NCBI GenBank assembly: GCA_965247115.1
Contig: CBDFGR010000003.1
Span: 1,056,001 to 1,120,000, forward strand
DNA: 64,000 nt
Origin: Myxococcota bacterium
Lineage (GTDB): Bacteria; Myxococcota_A; UBA9160; SZUA-336
Direction of reading: 5' to 3'
Shown: positions 55,232 to 63,473 of the stretch, piece by piece
Layout: each line of letters starts with the position of its first letter
How positions within the stretch are numbered: the stretch's first letter is position 1
The notes under the pieces: model-generated
Database searches by the model: none
What the model was told of the DNA's origin: nothing
What the model saw: the letters and a program-made list of their open reading frames with translations, nothing else
Program-made: the position numbers and the translations under genes

Positions 55232-56710
55232 TCACCGCGCGACCGTCTCCAGCGTGCGGTAGAGGAACTCGACCGCCCAGGCGAGTGCGGGGAGTGGGAC
55301 CCGCTCGTTGTCTCCGTGCATGCGGAGCTCATCCTGCTCCACCAACGGAAACGGCAGGATGCCGTACGTCGGGATTCCACGGGCGCGCAGAGCGGCGCCG
55401 TCCGTCGCACCCGCGGACATGAACGGCATGACGACAGCACCAGGAGCCATGTCCCCGCTCGTCTCCTCGAGCGCTCGAAAGAGGGCAGTCCCGACCGGCG
55501 AAACCGGAGGCGAGCTCCGCGGCTCGCCAACCAGCGCAAAGGTTACCGCCGCCTCTCCGCCGGCTGCCTGCATGCCAGTCACGATCTCGCCTACGTCATC
55601 GCCGGGAAGCACGCGCACGTTGAAGGTCGCCACGCCTTCCGAGGGGATCACGTTCGCCCGAATTCCCCCACTGATCAGTGTAAGTGCCTGGCCGGTTCGG
55701 AGCATCGTGTTGTGCAGTGGGTTTCGTGACAGGATCTCGGCAGCCGCCATCGAGCGGGGCGAGGCGTCTCCCACCAGGTCCAGCATGGCCTGGCGGAGCA
55801 TCCCATCCGACTCGATCTCGGCCAATCGACCAAAGTACAAGCGCGTGGTCTCGTTCAGCCGGACCGGAGCGCGCCAGGCGTGGACGCGTCCCAACGCGCG
55901 CGCGAGCGCCGCAAGGGCGTTGTCCGGCAGCGGCACGGAGCCGTGCCCGCTGGGACCAAGCGCTCGGACCTCTACGTCGTAATAGATCTTCTCGGTGGTC
56001 TGGATGCTGACCGAGCGGATCTCGCCGCTGGTTATTCGGATGCGGCCGCCCTCGTTCAATGCAAACTCGGGATCTCCGAGCAGCGCGAGATGCTCTGCGA
56101 GCACGACATCTACTCCAACCGGGTCGCCCCCTTCCTCGGCAGCGGTGGCGAGGAGGACGACGTCGCGCGAAAGCTGGTCGCGCCGCTCGGCCAGGGACTG
56201 CAGCGCCGCCACAGCAGCTGCCAGCATTCCCTTGTCATCGATCGCACCTCGGCCATACAGATAACCGCCGCGGATCGCGGGTGAGAAGGGAGGGCTGTCC
56301 CACTTGTCCGGCTGCGCCCCCACCACATCCATGTGCCCCATCACGAGGACGGGACGCTCCGTTGGCTGCCCTGCGCGCACCCGCGCGACGAAGTTCGCGC
56401 GTCCTTCCCCAACCGGGAGCACGTGCGTCTCGACACCGTCGGCGTCGTTGAGTACGGACTCGAGATAGAGCGCGCTCGAGAGCTCGTTCCCTGGCGGGTT
56501 CTGGGTGTCGATTCTGATCAGCGCCTCCAGATGTGCCAGGGTACGCGCCGCGGCTGCCGGGCGGTCGAAGCCCTGCGGCGCCGGGGCGACCAGCGTCCAC
56601 GGGCCTGTCGCTGCATGCAGGACGGCAGCGCGTATGCCGAATGCCGCTGCAAGGGAGAAGCTCAGTACGACGAGGAATAGCAGTCGAACCATCCGGGACC
56701 TCGGACGCAC
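55232..56710 (-). CDS. Exported M20/M25/M40 metallopeptidase
   Basis: GHMDVV, GRGAIDDKG, AEE, NEGG and HGDNE. N-terminal hydrophobic segment. Confidence 0.92.
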   Translation of the reverse strand: MRPRSRMVRLLFLVVLSFSLAAAFGIRAAVLHAATGPWTLVAPAPQGFDRPAAAARTLAHLEALIRIDTQNPPGNELSSALYLESVLNDADGVETHVLPVGEGRANFVARVRAGQPTERPVLVMGHMDVVGAQPDKWDSPPFSPAIRGGYLYGRGAIDDKGMLAAAVAALQSLAERRDQLSRDVVLLATAAEEGGDPVGVDVVLAEHLALLGDPEFALNEGGRIRITSGEIRSVSIQTTEKIYYDVEVRALGPSGHGSVPLPDNALAALARALGRVHAWRAPVRLNETTRLYFGRLAEIESDGMLRQAMLDLVGDASPRSMAAAEILSRNPLHNTMLRTGQALTLISGGIRANVIPSEGVATFNVRVLPGDDVGEIVTGMQAAGGEAAVTFALVGEPRSSPPVSPVGTALFRALEETSGDMAPGAVVMPFMSAGATDGAALRARGIPTYGILPFPLVEQDELRMHGDNERVPLPALAWAVEFLYRTLETVAR

Positions 56711-56728: not shown

Positions 56729-58844
56729 CTAGATACTAGCTCGACGGTCTCCGATAATCCTCGTCGGTTCCAGCGCGAGCTCGTGGTCCATGCTCCCGAT
56801 GAGCTCCGCACGATGTGTGACAACCACTCGAGTCACGTCGAGCTTTCCAATCTCTTCGTTGATCTGGGCCTCCAGTCGGGCATCCAGGTTCGACGTCCAC
56901 TCGTCGAGGAACAACACGCGAGGCTCTCTATAGAGCGCTCGGGCGAGCAGCACGCGCTGACGCTGTCCAGCGGACAGCATGCTCCCCATGTCGCCGATCT
57001 GGCTGTCGTACTGCATGGGCATGCTGGCGATCTCTCGATGAATCGCCGCCGTCTCCGCGCAGGAACGGATTCTGTCGGCGTCGCGCTCCACGTCGAACAA
57101 GCAGATGTTGTCCGCGATCGAGCCCGAAAGAAGCTGGTCGTTCTGCATGACCGCCGCGATCTGATGGCGATAAGTGCTCAATCCGAGCTGATCCAGACGC
57201 GTTCCGTCTACCCGTACCTCGCCCGAGCTCGGCGAAAGGAGCCCGAGCAGGAGCTTGATGAGCGTAGTCTTGCCACAGCCGGAAGGTCCCGTGATGGCGA
57301 TCGACTGGCCACGCTCGATCGTGAGGTTGAGACCCTCCAGGACCGGTGGGTCAGAGGCAGCGTAGCGGAACCCGAGGTCTACGAGCTCGATGCAGCCATC
57401 GACTCGTCTCGGACGCGAGCCGTTCGCAGGAGACCCGTCCTCCGCGCGGGTCAGCGCAATGTCCGCCACGCGGACGAGATGCAAGTCCAGCATCCGGAGC
57501 TCGATCGCCTGGTCAATCAGCGCGGAGAGCCTCGTCGTGAACTGACCCTTGTAGGACATGAACGCGAAGAGCATCCCGACCGTGAGCTCGTGGCTCAGGA
57601 CCAAGGTGGCTCCGAGGTAGATCACGGCCACGTTCTCGAGGCCGAAGAGAACGCCGCGGATCGCATCCTGACCGATAGCCAGCCTTCCTAGCCGGACACC
57701 TGCATTCAGCTGAGCGGCGTGGCGATTCTGCCAGACCACCTCACGATCCGACTCGCAGCCGAACACCTTGATGCTTTGCAGGGCCCGGAGCGTCTCGAAC
57801 ACGCTCGAGTCCTCCCTTGCGCCGGCCACGATCTGTTCCTCCGAGAGATCCTTGAGAGGAGCGTAGAAAGCGATGCGCGTGAACCAGTACAGGGTCACGG
57901 AGGCGAGTACGACCGAGGACAGCACCGGGCTGTAGGCGAGGATCATGGCGAGGGTCGCGAGCGCCATCAGCCCATTCGATCCCGACGGTGACCAACCCGG
58001 TGGTGAAGAGCCTGGTGATCGGCTCGAGCGAGCCGAAGCGGGAAACAACGTCTCCCAGGTGGCGCTTCTCGAAGTACGAGATGGGAAGTCGCAGCAGGTG
58101 GTGAAACAGGTTCGAGACGATCTGAAAGCCGAGCTCCGACCCCAGCCGCAAAACGAGCCATGAGCGCAGCGCCCTGGTCCCCAGATGGATCAGCATCAGA
58201 AGCACGAACGCCAGGGCGAGTAGCGAGAGAAGGTCCCGATCGCGCCTCGCGAGGCCCTCATCCACCACGAGCTGCATGTAGAACGGGCTCGCCAGCGCGA
58301 AGACCTGGAGGACCAGCGACACGACGAAGAGCTGAGCGAGAGCGCCCTTCAAGCCCGAGGCACGTCTCCAGAGATCCGCCAGCTGGAGCTTCTCGCTGCT
58401 GGGGCCGGGCTCGAATCCGTCCATGGGCAGGAGCTCCAGGGCCACCCCGGTCAGGTGTGGTGACGCCTCCCGAAGCGAGTAGGTCCGTCTGCCGAGGGCC
58501 GGATTGTGGACGACGATTCCGCGGCGTGAGGCGCTCCTCAGCACGACGAAGTGCGTCGCGTCCCAGTGCAGGATGGCCGGTGTCCTCAGTGCGCAGAGCT
58601 CATCCAGGGCGATCCGGAGGGGTCGGCAGCTCAGGCCGAGCTGGCTCGCCGTCAGCATGAGGGACTTGAGGCTGGTGCCTCGAAGCGACGCCGCGTGATC
58701 ACGCCGCAGAGAAGTCAGGTCGGTCTGGCGTCCGTGATAGCTCGCGACCATTGCAAGGCACGCCAGTCCGCACTCGGCCGCTTCCGTCTGAAGGAGCACA
58801 GGAAGTGCGGAGCGCCTCGAGAAGCGCAGCGCGGCGCTACTCAT
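56729..58844 (-). pseudogene. C39 peptidase-containing ABC exporter (CvaB/RaxB-like) with a one-base frameshift
   Basis: QTEAAECGLACL, LHW..HFVVL, GPSGCGKTT, LSAGQRQR and LFLDE. An extra A at 57975-57976 (ATC GAAT GGG versus ATC GAT GGG CTG ATG) splits the frame. Confidence 0.9.
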
Positions 58845-59773
58845 TCGGCGGCTCTCCAGAACTCCGGAAGGCGGTGCCATAGCAGCCACTCACCGGGCCG
58901 CGCACGGATCCAGCCCTCCGCTCGAGCCGCGAGCTGTCGCATGATGCGCGCGCTCGCGAGGGCCACGTCCTCGCCGTCGAGGACTCGTGCCAGCATGGGC
59001 CTTTCGAAGTGCACGACCTCTCGTCCGAGCTCGTCCGCATAGCTGACCGCTGGCAGAATGACCGCTCCAGCCAGCAGGGCGAGCAAGGCCGCGCCTGCGG
59101 GGAGTCGTGCGCTTCGGCCGAACAGCGGCACTACAACCGAGCGACCGGTTCCGAACGCGAGTGGCGTATCGAACTGTATGAGGAGCGTGTTGCCGGCGCG
59201 TAGCTCCAGCCAGGCTTTGAGGCCCGGCCGGTCCGAGAAGGGGATCGCGCCTACCTCGACACCGGCTGGTGCGAGCCGTCGGTAGGCAAGCTCTTCACGC
59301 CCGGTCCACTCTCGCAGCGTGATGACGCGGATCTGTCGGCCGGGCGGCGAGATCCGAACCAGCTTCGCGAACCCGCGCAGATAGCTGCCCATGTGAATCG
59401 TCGCCACCACGAGCGGGGTGCTCTCGCTCGGACCTACACGATCGCCGAGCTCGACACCGCTGTACGCGAACCCCTCTCCCCTGACGTCGACGCTATCTGC
59501 CAGCTCGACCGCGCGCGCCCGGCTCCCCAGGATGAGGTCGCGATAGTCACAGTGAAAGGAACAGGCGCGGTGAAATTGCTGCAGCGCGATGCGCCTCGCC
59601 TCGCGCGGAGACTCGTCCAGCGCCAGCTCTACGATCCGAGCAGCGCGGCGATGCGCCGAGCGCCCACACGTTGCGTAGGCTGCACCACCTAGCACCCGCG
59701 CGCAGCTTCGAGCGAGGGTCGCAGGGAGGTGCGAGGCGAGGAGCGTAGCCACAGAGACGATCCAACCAGGCAT
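58841..59773 (-). CDS. LpxL/lysophospholipid acyltransferase-like protein
   Basis: VATIHMGSY, IQFD, VPLFG..A.LPAG.A.LA...GA.I.P and IR..P.EW..WH. ATGA overlap with the exporter. Confidence 0.78.
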   Translation of the reverse strand: MPGWIVSVATLLASHLPATLARSCARVLGGAAYATCGRSAHRRAARIVELALDESPREARRIALQQFHRACSFHCDYRDLILGSRARAVELADSVDVRGEGFAYSGVELGDRVGPSESTPLVVATIHMGSYLRGFAKLVRISPPGRQIRVITLREWTGREELAYRRLAPAGVEVGAIPFSDRPGLKAWLELRAGNTLLIQFDTPLAFGTGRSVVVPLFGRSARLPAGAALLALLAGAVILPAVSYADELGREVVHFERPMLARVLDGEDVALASARIMRQLAARAEGWIRARPGEWLLWHRLPEFWRAAE

Positions 59774-59800
59774 GACCGTCGCAGGCTCGGCCCTGTGCGC

Positions 59801-60130
59801 TTACCAGCAGGCGGCAGGCTTGCCGCCATCCCCGCCCGAAAATGGAGCTCCGAAACTCATCATGCCGATGAAGCTCGAAATAGTATCCGTCACGTGCAGG
59901 GTGCCGACGGCCGCGTTGTAGGTCTTGCCGGGGTTGTCGTAGGCGTAACCAGCGACCTGGCCCCCGATCTCGCTGGTCAGCCCCATCGTCATGGTGGTCG
60001 CAAAGCCGCCGCAAGGCAGGCACATTCCGTACCCGAGGCCCAAACCGGCTAGCTGGCCTGCACTCACTGCGATCTGCCGCCCATCCCCACCGGACACGAA
60101 CTCGACCTCGGCTGGCGTCAACTCACGCAT
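59801..60130 (-). CDS. Double-glycine-leader bacteriocin/microcin precursor (109 aa)
   Basis: 15-aa leader MRELTPAEVEFVSGG, like the colicin V leader. Gly/Ala-rich 94-aa core; RBS caggagg. Confidence 0.88.
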   Translation of the reverse strand: MRELTPAEVEFVSGGDGRQIAVSAGQLAGLGLGYGMCLPCGGFATTMTMGLTSEIGGQVAGYAYDNPGKTYNAAVGTLHVTDTISSFIGMMSFGAPFSGGDGGKPAACW

Positions 60131-60734
60131 TTCTTCCTCCTGTTTCTCTTGGTCTGACGTTGATGAGAGGGCCCAGCAGCCACCCGATTAGGGAGCGCCG
60201 CTCGACGGTGATCTGCGTGCTGAGGCGCATCCCGGCGCGCAGCGGGACCTGCCTGCCGTGCACGACGAGCTCGTGCTCGACCAGCTCCACTGTGACGCGG
60301 TGTACCGGTTCCTCGATCACGATGGGGAGCTGCGGATCCCGTGGGAGCAGGATCGCCTCACTGACTTCACGCACCCGACCCCGGAAGCTGCCAAAGCGCG
60401 GGGATGGGAACGCATCGTAGTGCAGCCAGACCTGCTGGCCGGGCCCCAGAGAGCCGAAGGCGCGCGTCGGAACGTACAGCTCTGCGTGCAGCCCAGCACT
60501 TGCCGGTACGAGCGAGACGTCTGATTCACTCGCGCGCCCGAGTGACAGAACTCCTCGGACCGTCACCTGTCTTGCGTAGTGGCCCCAGACAAGCAGAGCG
60601 CCGAGCGCGCTACACGTGCATATGGCAAACACCGTCACCAGCGAGAGCCCAAGCGGCTGCGTCAGGATTACACCGCCCCAGATCGATGCGCTAGAGCGTG
60701 CGGTGGCTTCTTCTCGAAATAGCGTTTCCCTCAC
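60123..60734 (-). CDS. Short HlyD/CvaA-like secretion adaptor
   Basis: LFREEA, TM helix, Y.R.V.V.G.L, AELYVP.RA.G...GQ.V.L.YDAFP..RFG and L.AGM. The long helical hairpin is missing. Confidence 0.85.
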   Translation of the reverse strand: MRETLFREEATARSSASIWGGVILTQPLGLSLVTVFAICTCSALGALLVWGHYARQVTVRGVLSLGRASESDVSLVPASAGLHAELYVPTRAFGSLGPGQQVWLHYDAFPSPRFGSFRGRVREVSEAILLPRDPQLPIVIEEPVHRVTVELVEHELVVHGRQVPLRAGMRLSTQITVERRSLIGWLLGPLINVRPRETGGRNA

Positions 60735-60768
60735 TGCTCTCTGAGTGGAGCGAGCGGGGCACAAGGTG

Positions 60769-61068
60769 TCAGCATCGGTCAGACCTCCGCTTCGTCGGAG
60801 CCAGCGGCAAGCACGCACGACATAGCAAGAGTGCGCCGAGTACCAATAGTGTCGTCAGGCCGAGCCGGAGTCCGACCGAGAGCCCACCGCCAAGCAGCGT
60901 CGCCACGACGGCAACCGGCACCATGGCGACCAGACTCCAGATCGTCTCTTGCCGGGAACGGAAGTTGGAGCTCGATCCGCAGCGTGGACAGAGGTAGGGA
61001 CGACTCCGCGAGATCGCCAGCAAGCTCCAGGCCGTCGGCCGTCGTCCGCAGCTCGGACACTGCGCCAT
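60769..61068 (-). CDS. Small zinc-ribbon (CxxC x2) two-TM membrane protein
   Basis: CPSCG...CPRCG followed by two hydrophobic helices. Confidence 0.7.
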   Translation of the reverse strand: MAQCPSCGRRPTAWSLLAISRSRPYLCPRCGSSSNFRSRQETIWSLVAMVPVAVVATLLGGGLSVGLRLGLTTLLVLGALLLCRACLPLAPTKRRSDRC

Positions 61069-61168: not shown

Positions 61169-61507
61169 TCAGTTGGGGAGATCGGGGCCGAGCCCGCTCT
61201 CGCAACGAAACAGAACCCGGCTCAAGAGGCGACGTGAAGGGGCGTCCAGGTTGGAGAAGCGGACGGCAAACCCGGTCGGTGTCGTCCGAACGACCTCAGA
61301 GGGCAGCTCGATCTCGAAGGATCCCGGGTAGTAGGACAGCCGCATGCGCAGCGGGGTTCCGCTCTCCACAACGATGGAGGCACGCTCGACAAGGGCGCCG
61401 GAGGCGGAGACGTTCCACACCGTCCCGGTGCCAACCTGATCGTCACATCGGAACTCGACGGGTCCAGTCAGCTCGTAGCGCGTCGCCGCAGGTTTATCGG
61501 TCGGCAT
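61169..61507 (-). CDS. PilZ domain protein
   Basis: RY.L...V, NVSASGA and EVVR....GFAVRF. Confidence 0.8.
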   Translation of the reverse strand: MPTDKPAATRYELTGPVEFRCDDQVGTGTVWNVSASGALVERASIVVESGTPLRMRLSYYPGSFEIELPSEVVRTTPTGFAVRFSNLDAPSRRLLSRVLFRCESGLGPDLPN

Positions 61508-61582
61508 GCCGGACCTCCGGTGACGGCATCGGCGAGGAATCTGCTCAGCCTGAGTCGGGCAGGCTGGGCTCGCTGCAAGGCG

Positions 61583-62008
61583 TCAGCGGAGATTGGCTAG
61601 GACGACGCGGAGGATGTCGAAGCGGGTCACGGCGCCGATCAACTTCCCATCCAGCACGACCGGCAGGCGTCGGAAGCTGTTCCTGAGGAACAGGCCCGCC
61701 GCAAAGTAGATGTCTGTATCGGGCGTGATCGTGGTGATGTCCGTCTCCATGAAGCTCTCGACTTTGCCGCTCGGGACATCGGCTCCGTGACCGGTGGCGA
61801 TCAGCTTGAGACAGTCCTTCTCGGTCAGCATCCCCACGAGCTGCCCGGTCTCGTCCAGGACGGGCGCCCCGGTCACGTGGTTCTTGAGCAAGGACTCGAC
61901 GGCCACCAGAATGTCCGTGTCCGTTCGCACCGTGTGCACGCGGGTATCCATGAAGTCCCCGACTGCTGGCAAGGTCATGAGCAGGCTGGAGGTGCTCCCG
62001 CGCGGCAT
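61583..62008 (-). CDS. CBS domain pair protein
   Basis: GAPVLD..G.LVGMLTEKD and RRLPVV.DGKLIG..TR.D. Confidence 0.9.
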   Translation of the reverse strand: MPRGSTSSLLMTLPAVGDFMDTRVHTVRTDTDILVAVESLLKNHVTGAPVLDETGQLVGMLTEKDCLKLIATGHGADVPSGKVESFMETDITTITPDTDIYFAAGLFLRNSFRRLPVVLDGKLIGAVTRFDILRVVLANLR

Positions 62009-62169
62009 TCGTTATCCCCTCGATCCCGACCCGATCGGTACCGGCCGGGCAGCGTTTCGAGTCGCGGCGTCGACTCGTGGACCTATTGTGACCCATCGTT
62101 CGCTTGGATGGCAATCGCCAGCGCCGGCTCGCGGACTCCTGGAGCCGTTCCAGAAGTCCCCTGGTTCCG

Positions 62170-62823
62170 CTAGGTTACGCCGCTCGATGCGCACGCGCTG
62201 CGCAGCAGTCTGCGGTATCCAGCCAGGACGAGGGCGAGCGCGACCGCCTGCACCGCGTGGTAGAGCGAATTGTGATTGAAGTAGACCGGATGGACGGAGA
62301 TCTGCAGCAGCTGGATAGCCGCCGCGACGAAGGATAGGACGAGTCCCCAGGCCCCGATCGTGGCTCCGACCAGCTCGCCCCGCCGCGAAACCACGACGAA
62401 CACAACAAGCAAGAACAGAGCGGCTGGCAGGTAATTCGCGACGGCGACCCAGAACGCATCGGTCACGAACACCACCACCGCACAGTACGCTCCGAGCTGC
62501 AGCACCCCCATCCGGATGATCCAGCGGGCAGCCTCGGGACGAATCACGAGGTGTGCGCCGATCGCCCAGCCGGAGAGGGTGGTCAGGCCGATTCCCAGCA
62601 GCGTCCCGGGCCACAACAGCGCGTGGCCGCTGCTCGTGGGATCGACGAAGAAGCCGTGGACGGTCCCTCCGAACAGGGAAGACACCGACAGCGAGGCGAA
62701 GAACAGAGTCATCCAGCGGCGCAACGCTCCCTCGCCGATCCGGGGTCGCCAGACCAACCAGGCGAAGACCGCGCATTCGAGCGCCAGTGCGTAGTCCGTC
62801 AGTGTGACGTCGGGCTCGGTCAC
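62170..62823 (-). CDS. Multi-pass membrane protein (DUF6962-like)
   Basis: EPD..LTDY, GG..HG and FNHN.LYH. GTG start overlaps the HAD gene stop. Confidence 0.75.
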   Translation of the reverse strand: MTEPDVTLTDYALALECAVFAWLVWRPRIGEGALRRWMTLFFASLSVSSLFGGTVHGFFVDPTSSGHALLWPGTLLGIGLTTLSGWAIGAHLVIRPEAARWIIRMGVLQLGAYCAVVVFVTDAFWVAVANYLPAALFLLVVFVVVSRRGELVGATIGAWGLVLSFVAAAIQLLQISVHPVYFNHNSLYHAVQAVALALVLAGYRRLLRSACASSGVT

Positions 62824-63473
62824 GTCATCAGCCGAAGAATCTCCGAGGGCTCCCGGACCATGGCCCTGGCGCCGGCGGCCTGGAGCTCTTCGGCAGTGCG
62901 ATAGCCCCATAGGACCCCGAGAGGAAACATGCCCGCGGCGTTGGCAGTTCTCACGTCTACCTCGGTGTCACCGACGAAGAGGCATTCGCCCGGTGACACG
63001 TTCAAGCTCTCGGCGATCTCGAGCGCCCCGGCAGGATCGGGCTTTCTGGGGCGTGCGGGGTGCTCTCCGATCACTGGGGTAAACGTCCAGCGTCCCAACA
63101 GGTCGTTCACGCAGCGCTCTGTAGCAGACTGGGACTTGTTCGAGAGCACTGCCAGACCGACCCCTCGATCTGCCACATCGTCCAATAGCTCGGGAATCCC
63201 GCTGAAGGGTCTGGTAGAGACGTTCCAGCTTCGCTCGTACTCCTCGAAGTAGGCCTCGACACACTCCTTTATCAGTGCCTCGCTACGGCGGTGGGCGGGC
63301 AACGCCTGTCTCACGCACTCCGGAGCGCCGTCTCCAATGAGCATGCGATAGGACTCGATCTGGTGCGTGGGAAAGCCGCGAGCCTCGAGCACCCAATTGC
63401 AGGATGTCCCGATGTCGTGGAGGGTATCCAGGAGGGTACCGTCGAGATCGAAGATCAGAGCTGGGAAGTGCAT
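62820..63473 (-). CDS. HAD-family hydrolase (phosphoglycolate phosphatase-like)
   Basis: FDLDGTLLDT, LSNK, KPDP and VGDT.VD. Confidence 0.92.
   Translation of the reverse strand: MHFPALIFDLDGTLLDTLHDIGTSCNWVLEARGFPTHQIESYRMLIGDGAPECVRQALPAHRRSEALIKECVEAYFEEYERSWNVSTRPFSGIPELLDDVADRGVGLAVLSNKSQSATERCVNDLLGRWTFTPVIGEHPARPRKPDPAGALEIAESLNVSPGECLFVGDTEVDVRTANAAGMFPLGVLWGYRTAEELQAAGARAMVREPSEILRLMT

Follow-up and report, generated by a model that had tools for sequence, protein, structure and literature searches.

A candidate microcin V-like operon with a lipid A-type acyltransferase gene in one genus of Myxococcota

The stretch analysed here (the window) comprises 64,000 nucleotides of contig C3 of a Myxococcota bacterium genome (G000, 5.17 Mb in 3 contigs), and the part under study is its minus strand between 55.2 and 61.1 kb. 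This segment carries an operon in which the gene of a double-glycine peptide precursor is followed directly by that of an acyltransferase with a predicted lysophospholipid acyltransferase (LPLAT) fold, the two being flanked by the adaptor and exporter genes of a peptide secretion system. The four genes are, in the order of transcription:

60123-60734, minus strand: short HlyD-family adaptor, 203 aa; the open reading frame (ORF) could reach 60818 (TIGR01843; PF26002 in relatives)
59801-60130, minus strand: double-glycine precursor, 109 aa (ORF list, alignment of relatives)
58841-59773, minus strand: LPLAT-fold acyltransferase, 310 aa (PF03279, AlphaFold2 (AF2) model, Foldseek)
56729-58844, minus strand: exporter with a C39 peptidase domain fused to an ATP-binding cassette (ABC) transporter, here termed PCAT (peptidase-containing ABC transporter); two overlapping frames, 57741-58889 and 56729-58048

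The genes are tightly packed. The stop codon of the adaptor overlaps the precursor ATG by 8 nt (ATGCGTGA), 27 nt separate the precursor stop from the acyltransferase ATG, and the acyltransferase and exporter genes overlap at ATGA; all three junctions had been described in a previous sequence-only reading of the stretch and proved exact. That reading had also counted five genes on the same strand. Five minus-strand ORFs are present, but the exporter is split into two frames and does not form one ORF. The fifth gene, upstream of the adaptor, encodes a small CxxC protein, and in the closest relative of the locus (L003) it is reduced to a 29-aa remnant with 55% identity, so that the conserved core consists of four genes. 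On this comparison the CxxC gene is accessory, and the conserved module, judged from gene content, is adaptor, double-glycine precursor, acyltransferase and C39-ABC exporter. A Pfam scan of the operon genes gave no matches to GNAT (GCN5-related N-acetyltransferase), HlyC-family, RTX (repeats-in-toxin) or arginase families, and revealed no glycosyltransferase, esterase or other lipid-pathway gene in the operon. A scan of the locus for promoters and terminators detected no terminator and a single promoter-like site, which lies on the wrong strand.

Precursor, acyltransferase and export genes

The precursor begins with a 15-aa leader, MRELTPAEVEFVSGG, which is invariant in nine relatives. Double-glycine leaders have hydrophobic residues at positions -4, -7 and -12, and the leader has V-4, V-7 and L-12 at these positions. 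The core that follows has 94 aa, a mass of 9.3 kDa, an isoelectric point of 4.75 and 21% Gly; the residues invariant among the nine relatives include Arg18, the segments GLGYGxCLPCGG and GYxYDxP, Thr45 and the C-terminal Trp109. PF17508 (MccV) was the only family matched by all nine family members, in every case below threshold (best E 0.0019), and the window precursor itself scored 14.9 bits against a gathering cut-off of 27 (E 0.041, residues 1-54). The nearest ESM Atlas cluster is a Colicin-V cluster at 0.88, which serves as a lead only. The presence of a double-glycine-leader peptide together with a C39-ABC exporter and an HlyD-type adaptor, as originally proposed, is borne out by the leader and by the domain matches. 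We regard the precursor as a putative remote MccV-like class II microcin, its activity being a prediction; double-glycine peptides are also described as serving other roles (PMC4997328).

For the acyltransferase, PF03279 (Lip_A_acyltrans) gave 35.7 bits (cut-off 22.3) over residues 207-301 only, the C-terminal third of the protein, and the NCBIfam equivalog scores lay far under their cut-offs (32.5 vs 209 and 26.1 vs 248). The AF2 model has a mean predicted local distance difference test (pLDDT) score of 92, and the top Foldseek ranks were taken by PatA (E 2e-10, TM-score up to 0.75) and LpxM (E 1e-9), with PlsC far behind. The Pfam match and the Foldseek ranks together uphold the earlier assignment of the sole enzyme gene of the operon to the LpxL/LpxM/PatA (LPLAT) fold. 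A HMMER search against 1.84 billion representatives yielded 545 relatives at E ≤1e-3 and 88 at E ≤1e-10, and only two close ones, P0007 (53%) and P0008 (45%).

His127, Leu191, Asp202, Pro241 and Trp299 are invariant in 26 aligned acyltransferases. In a profile-to-PDB alignment, His127 corresponds to His126 of PatA and Asp202 to PatA Glu200, residues that are described as the general base and as assisting it, respectively (PMC8519569). The acid of the HX4D/E motif is replaced by Leu132 in the window enzyme (HMGSYL), whereas D or E is kept in six housekeeping paralogues of Myxococcota. A comparable deviation is reported for VexE, which carries Tyr at the HX4D position and is nevertheless active, requires the equivalent Asp (Asp532), and acylates UDP-GlcNAc, its product leaving through an ABC transporter (PMC9597891). 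The ratio of nonsynonymous to synonymous substitution rates (dN/dS) relative to L003 is 0.28 for the acyltransferase, 0.24 for the precursor and 0.45 for the adaptor, and 0.14-0.17 for both halves of the exporter; neighbouring genes lie at 0.11-0.33. All four core genes are under purifying selection. In view of the invariant His127 and Asp202, the alignment with PatA, the precedent of VexE and the dN/dS of 0.28, the acyltransferase is probably catalytically active.

On the two frames of the exporter, Pfam matched Peptidase_C39 (E 1.3e-29), ABC_membrane and ABC_tran. The catalytic Cys and the catalytic His of the C39 domain are both present, in the motifs ECGLACL and THFVVL. The third residue of the triad, which we take from the known form of the motif to be the variable position in VVH[N/D]PALG (window 58400-58440), is Asn in the window and in L003 (VVHNPALG) and Asp in L004 (VVHDPALG), a further locus of the genus. 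In this genome one inserted nucleotide at 57975/57976 splits the gene, so that one frame encodes the C39 domain together with the N-terminal portion of the transmembrane domain (TMD) and the other the remaining TMD and the nucleotide-binding domain. On the minus strand the change of frame falls inside a conserved TMD segment, within ...LVTVGI/E.. and ..GLMALATL...., where the relatives read ...IDGLMAL..., as would be expected if the TT at 57975-57976 contains one surplus base. With its exporter frameshifted, the peptide-export system is probably inactive in this genome.

The contigs of other sequencing runs bear on the nature of this break. The extra base occurs in the contigs of two runs of one sample (X1 and X2), which are near-identical to the window and probably its source, and is absent from the contigs of all six runs from six other studies (X4, X5, X6, X7, X8 and X12); the exporter gene is also intact in L003 and L004. 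Two other indels, each confined to a single strain and seen at a depth of 7-8, lie nearby: the exporter is one base shorter at 57898 in X5, and the acyltransferase of X12 carries an additional C behind 59019. Both are absent from X6, X7 and X8, and none of the three indels is located in a long homopolymer. Such differing single-base indels among near-identical strains may reflect either repeated inactivation of a costly locus or errors in low-depth contigs. In combination, the two overlapping frames, the position of the shift, its restriction to the probable source sample and the neighbouring indels make it rather probable that a real 1-nt insertion has killed the exporter, in which case the locus of this genome would be dead or dying and no peptide would be exported whatever the acyltransferase does. 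The low dN/dS of both exporter halves implies that any such inactivation is recent, or that the break is possibly a read artefact common to the runs of that sample. This explanation is about the condition of the locus and can stand beside any reading of the role of the acyltransferase.

The adaptor is unusually short. TIGR01843 (HlyD) covers only its residues 86-220, equivalent to profile positions 288-413 of 422, with 64 bits against a cut-off of 209. Its start was set at the GTG at 60734 on the basis of the comparison with L003, which makes 203 aa the probable length; six close relatives have 185-204 aa and carry PF26002. The protein is built of one transmembrane helix, a short VRGVLS strand and then, directly, the beta-barrel domain. 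Alignment against long HlyD fragments showed that it lacks the coiled-coil hairpin and the greater part of the lipoyl domain, and this short form is kept in the six relatives. The HlyD-like adaptor of the sequence-only reading thus belongs to the HlyD family, but it is a conserved short form of ~203 aa devoid of the coiled-coil hairpin and not a full-length member. Because the hairpin is missing, the product may remain in the envelope, and the short adaptor suggests that export could stop at the periplasm or the envelope.

Occurrence of the operon and of its acyltransferase

The acyltransferase family profile matched 21 of 401 Myxococcota genomes at E ≤1e-25. Only the window genome and a same-genus relative (G358, a genome assembled from a metagenome and the source of L003) did so at ~1e-103, the other 19 matches falling between 1e-26 and 1e-30, and the precursor profile matched the same two genomes of the 401. 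Across the order the acyltransferase is found in 3 of 32 genomes, which are all three members of the genus, and was not found in the 29 others. The gene order in L003 is adaptor, precursor, acyltransferase and intact exporter. L004, which belongs to an incomplete metagenome-assembled genome (1.8 Mb) of the genus, has the acyltransferase, an intact exporter and an M20 gene, with the contig ending inside the acyltransferase; adaptor and precursor were not found in this incomplete genome. The acyltransferase, precursor and adaptor clusters have members on contigs of equal sizes (8871, 4999, 6402 and 5886), which suggests, from the matching sizes only, that four further contigs carry all three small genes. 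Three genomes of the same family share only a VOC gene with the neighbourhood of the operon, and tblastn searches with the window acyltransferase, P0012 and P0015 against plasmids gave no match. What the locus presents is a genuine variation on the class II microcin scheme, limited to one genus and having the LPLAT acyltransferase as its sole enzyme.

A second PF03279 gene is found in the same genome, at C2:1364745. It scored 6.8e-30 against the family profile, a level like that of the 19 other genomes matched, and keeps the HX4D/E motif. In a quick maximum-likelihood tree of PF03279 relatives (62 rows, the careful search being unfinished), the housekeeping copies form a clade of their own (100), and the enzymes of the window, L003, L004, P0007 and P0008 form another (99), which is nested in a 28-row clade (99) with 23 other members. 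The operon enzyme is, by the presence of this second gene, the gap in scores and the separate clades, a paralogue distinct from the housekeeping LpxL-like copy, as the sequence-only reading would require.

Metagenomes were also scanned for a distant acyltransferase subgroup (A5, motif SIHM[GD]xF), and five loci were returned (L027-L031), whose acyltransferases are 28-31% identical to that of the window. In L027 and L028 the gene overlaps that of an MsbA-like half-transporter without a C39 domain, and in L029-L031 it follows MacB-type ATPase/permease genes accompanied by HlyD and OEP (outer membrane efflux protein) genes. A ketoacyl synthase (L028), S9 peptidase lipoproteins (L027 and L030) and a CAAX protease (L030) are encoded close by. 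Taken by themselves, these five loci represent an uncharacterised acylation-and-export module. The ABC protein of L027 shares only 24% identity with the exporter of L004, and orthology of the distant acyltransferase-ABC pairs to the window pair is not claimed. The broader acyltransferase family is exporter-linked and not visibly PCAT-linked, which ties acylation to export and does not point to a peptide.

Acceptor of the acyl chain

We propose, with a probability of roughly 40%, that the precursor is acylated by the PatA/LpxL-fold enzyme before it is processed and exported by the PCAT. In the cytoplasm, the enzyme would transfer a fatty acyl chain, presumably from acyl-ACP (acyl carrier protein) or acyl-CoA (coenzyme A), to the precursor, and the candidate sites are the invariant nucleophiles Tyr34, Cys37, Cys40, Thr45, Tyr62 and Tyr64, O-acylation being the option nearest to the known chemistry of the family. 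The C39-ABC exporter would then remove the leader and export the acylated peptide. This proposal was chosen because of where the gene stands in the operon, because it strictly accompanies the precursor, because it has diverged from the housekeeping copies with the catalytic pair kept, and because of the purifying selection; we infer the peptide to be the acyl acceptor from sequence alone. Prediction of a complex between acyltransferase and precursor, run without controls, gave ipSAE values of 0.00 and 0.00, which speak neither for nor against the proposal. It is possible, if doubtful, that the product is an O-/S-acylated colicin-V-like peptide which stays lipid-anchored in the Myxococcota envelope, and which would give the first instance of a lipid-A-type acyltransferase producing a ribosomal lipopeptide; retention in the envelope was considered because the adaptor has no TolC-docking hairpin.

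Several observations weigh against a peptide acceptor. To our knowledge, no enzyme of the LPLAT fold acylates a peptide. The Lys residues of the core and Cys108 are not conserved among the nine relatives of the precursor. The acyltransferase, whose 310 aa correspond to the size of PatA and LpxM, carries no additional domain for leader binding. All cases of co-occurrence come from one genus and are therefore not independent. A double-glycine ORF was found in none of the five distant loci by a crude regular-expression search, which is weak evidence; the linkage of homologues to precursor and exporter, on which the sequence-only reading had laid weight, holds in every close relative seen and is not apparent at the five distant loci. 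As these distant homologues stand beside MsbA-like or MacB-type exporters and no double-glycine ORF, the wider family may act on lipids. The characterised enzymes of the fold (PatA, LpxL/M and VexE) are all described as acylating glycolipid precursors, on sugar or hydroxyacyl hydroxyls (PMC8519569, PMC9597891). Finally, no small conserved immunity gene was seen at the locus, and a role in immunity is consequently left open for the acyltransferase.

In such a role the enzyme would remodel lipid A or another envelope lipid, which would keep the exported microcin from acting on its producer, and would stand in for the small immunity protein of the membrane that class II microcin operons have. This would agree with envelope glycolipids being the known acceptors of the fold (PMC8519569, PMC9597891), and with the location of the gene directly beside the microcin gene, where validated immunity genes are reported to lie (PMC12219008). 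The locus, moreover, has no conserved small immunity ORF, the CxxC/transmembrane protein being only a remnant in L003. However, the validated immunity proteins, as described in the available text of the same survey, are small transmembrane proteins (≤216 aa) and not enzymes (PMC12219008), and the acyltransferase is translationally coupled to the exporter, not to the microcin. A weak pointer in the same direction comes from the single low-depth X12 contig (depth 7.7), in which the acyltransferase is frameshifted and the precursor and exporter are free of indels, since loss of a tailoring gene should be easier to tolerate than loss of an immunity gene. Self-immunity is considered unlikely.

It is quite improbable that the enzyme acts on a non-peptide sugar or lipid precursor, the product being exported alongside the peptide or unrelated to it, and that the acyltransferase and the ABC exporter are an older unit joined here to a microcin cassette: the exporters adjoining the distant homologues (MsbA-like in L027 and L028, MacB-type in L029-L031), the ketoacyl synthase of L028 and the acylated sugar nucleotide made by VexE, whose product leaves via an ABC transporter (PMC9597891), fit such a scheme, but the operon is devoid of glycosyltransferase and other lipid-pathway genes, the exporter is a peptide-cleaving PCAT with 24% identity to the L027 ABC protein, and the enzyme is confined to precursor-carrying genomes.

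Acylation of the precursor can be set against several known systems. Among the closest is that of microcin V (CvaC/CvaB/CvaA/TolC/Cvi, class IIa), with which the operon shares the 15-aa double-glycine leader, the anionic, Gly-rich core of ~9 kDa with Cys, and the pairing of a C39-ABC exporter with an HlyD-family adaptor. It differs in the LPLAT acyltransferase at the position of the immunity gene, in the adaptor without hairpin, in the Myxococcota host and in the PF17508 score (14.9 vs 27 bits). We know of no modification of microcin V other than the disulfide. As in the class IIb siderophore microcins (MccE492, MccH47 and MccM; MceC/D/I/J), an enzyme encoded in the cluster would modify a class II precursor. 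Dedicated cluster enzymes of class IIb are reported to modify the precursor before or at export (PMC7680869, PMC12219008), and a microcin review describes MceIJ as attaching the siderophore. The moiety attached there is a glucosylated enterobactin derivative, on the C-terminal Ser of a Gly/Ser-rich tail, whereas here the C-terminal residue is an invariant Trp, glycosyltransferase and esterase genes are absent and the enzyme belongs to a different family.

Precedents for a ribosomal precursor fatty-acylated by a cluster-encoded enzyme exist among peptides made by ribosomes and modified after translation (RiPPs). Selidamides, lipolanthines, goadvionins, lipoavitides and aphotorhaptins are all listed as acylated by GNATs (PMC13647313, 2026), and the selidamides, which provide a precedent for RiPP lipopeptides, also have Gly-Gly leaders (PMC13647313). 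The GNATs of these RiPP lipopeptides are described as N-acylating Lys or Orn side chains or the new N-terminus (PMC13647313). In contrast, the window operon has no GNAT and its core no conserved Lys, and LPLAT chemistry is O-acylation; Arg18 is invariant, but unlike in the selidamide type there is no arginase gene that would provide Orn.

RTX activation offers a further parallel. HlyC acylates HlyA, which is then exported by HlyB/HlyD/TolC; likewise, a dedicated acyltransferase would here add a lipid to a polypeptide destined for secretion while it is still in the cytoplasm, and an ABC protein and an HlyD-family adaptor of the same operon would then export it. HlyC acts on a large RTX protein whose signal is C-terminal, and HlyB has an inactive C39-like domain. 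HlyC moreover belongs to another enzyme family, and the C39 Cys and His that are present in the window exporter distinguish it from the inactive domain of HlyB. At the level of the enzyme, the relationship is with PatA (PDB 5F2Z and 5OCE), LpxM (5KN7), LpxL and VexE, to which the fold is similar with TM-scores of 0.6-0.75, and the absence of the HX4D/E acid is a trait shared with VexE. Unlike in these cases, the acyltransferase gene is part of a peptide-export operon and not of a lipid A, phosphatidylinositol mannoside or capsule pathway.

A literature search covering the main text of papers found no system that pairs a microcin, bacteriocin or RiPP with a lipid A or lysophospholipid acyltransferase, and a search for class II microcins in Myxococcus found no system of this kind. 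In the available text of a 2025 survey of class II microcins the word "acyltransferase" occurs zero times (PMC12219008). The sequence-only reading likewise knew of no characterised system of this type.

If the enzyme does lipidate the peptide, it would represent a second enzyme family, unrelated to GNATs, for the making of gene-encoded lipopeptides. The precursor would then be the first peptide substrate of the LpxL/PatA fold, and its acylation the first modification of a class II microcin besides siderophore attachment. Should the enzyme protect the producer, by contrast, microcin immunity would here have an enzymatic, lipid-based mechanism. Either reading would extend MccV-like peptides to Myxococcota.

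Neighbouring genes

Two further minus-strand genes flank the four-gene core:

60769-61068, minus strand: CxxC protein with two predicted transmembrane segments, 99 aa (ORF list, hydropathy)
55232-56710, minus strand: secreted M20-family peptidase/deacylase (Pfam M20; NCBIfam PRK09133, ArgE/DapE-type deacylase)

The CxxC protein has two CxxC pairs and, by hydropathy, a hydrophobic C-terminal stretch at residues 41-92; TIGR04104 (NCBIfam) matched it with E 1.4e-7 and 31.7 bits, under the cut-off of 45. The M20 gene comes next after the exporter both in the window and in L004, and L003 lacks it; being a variable neighbour, it may or may not belong to the system. Placed next to an acyltransferase and an exporter, a deacylase acting in the periplasm would be in keeping with a prodrug-type scheme, but this arrangement is not conserved. 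Upstream on the same strand (61169-62910) are genes for a PilZ-domain protein, a tandem-CBS protein and a DUF6962 membrane protein, which have no evident operon link and are all syntenic with L003.

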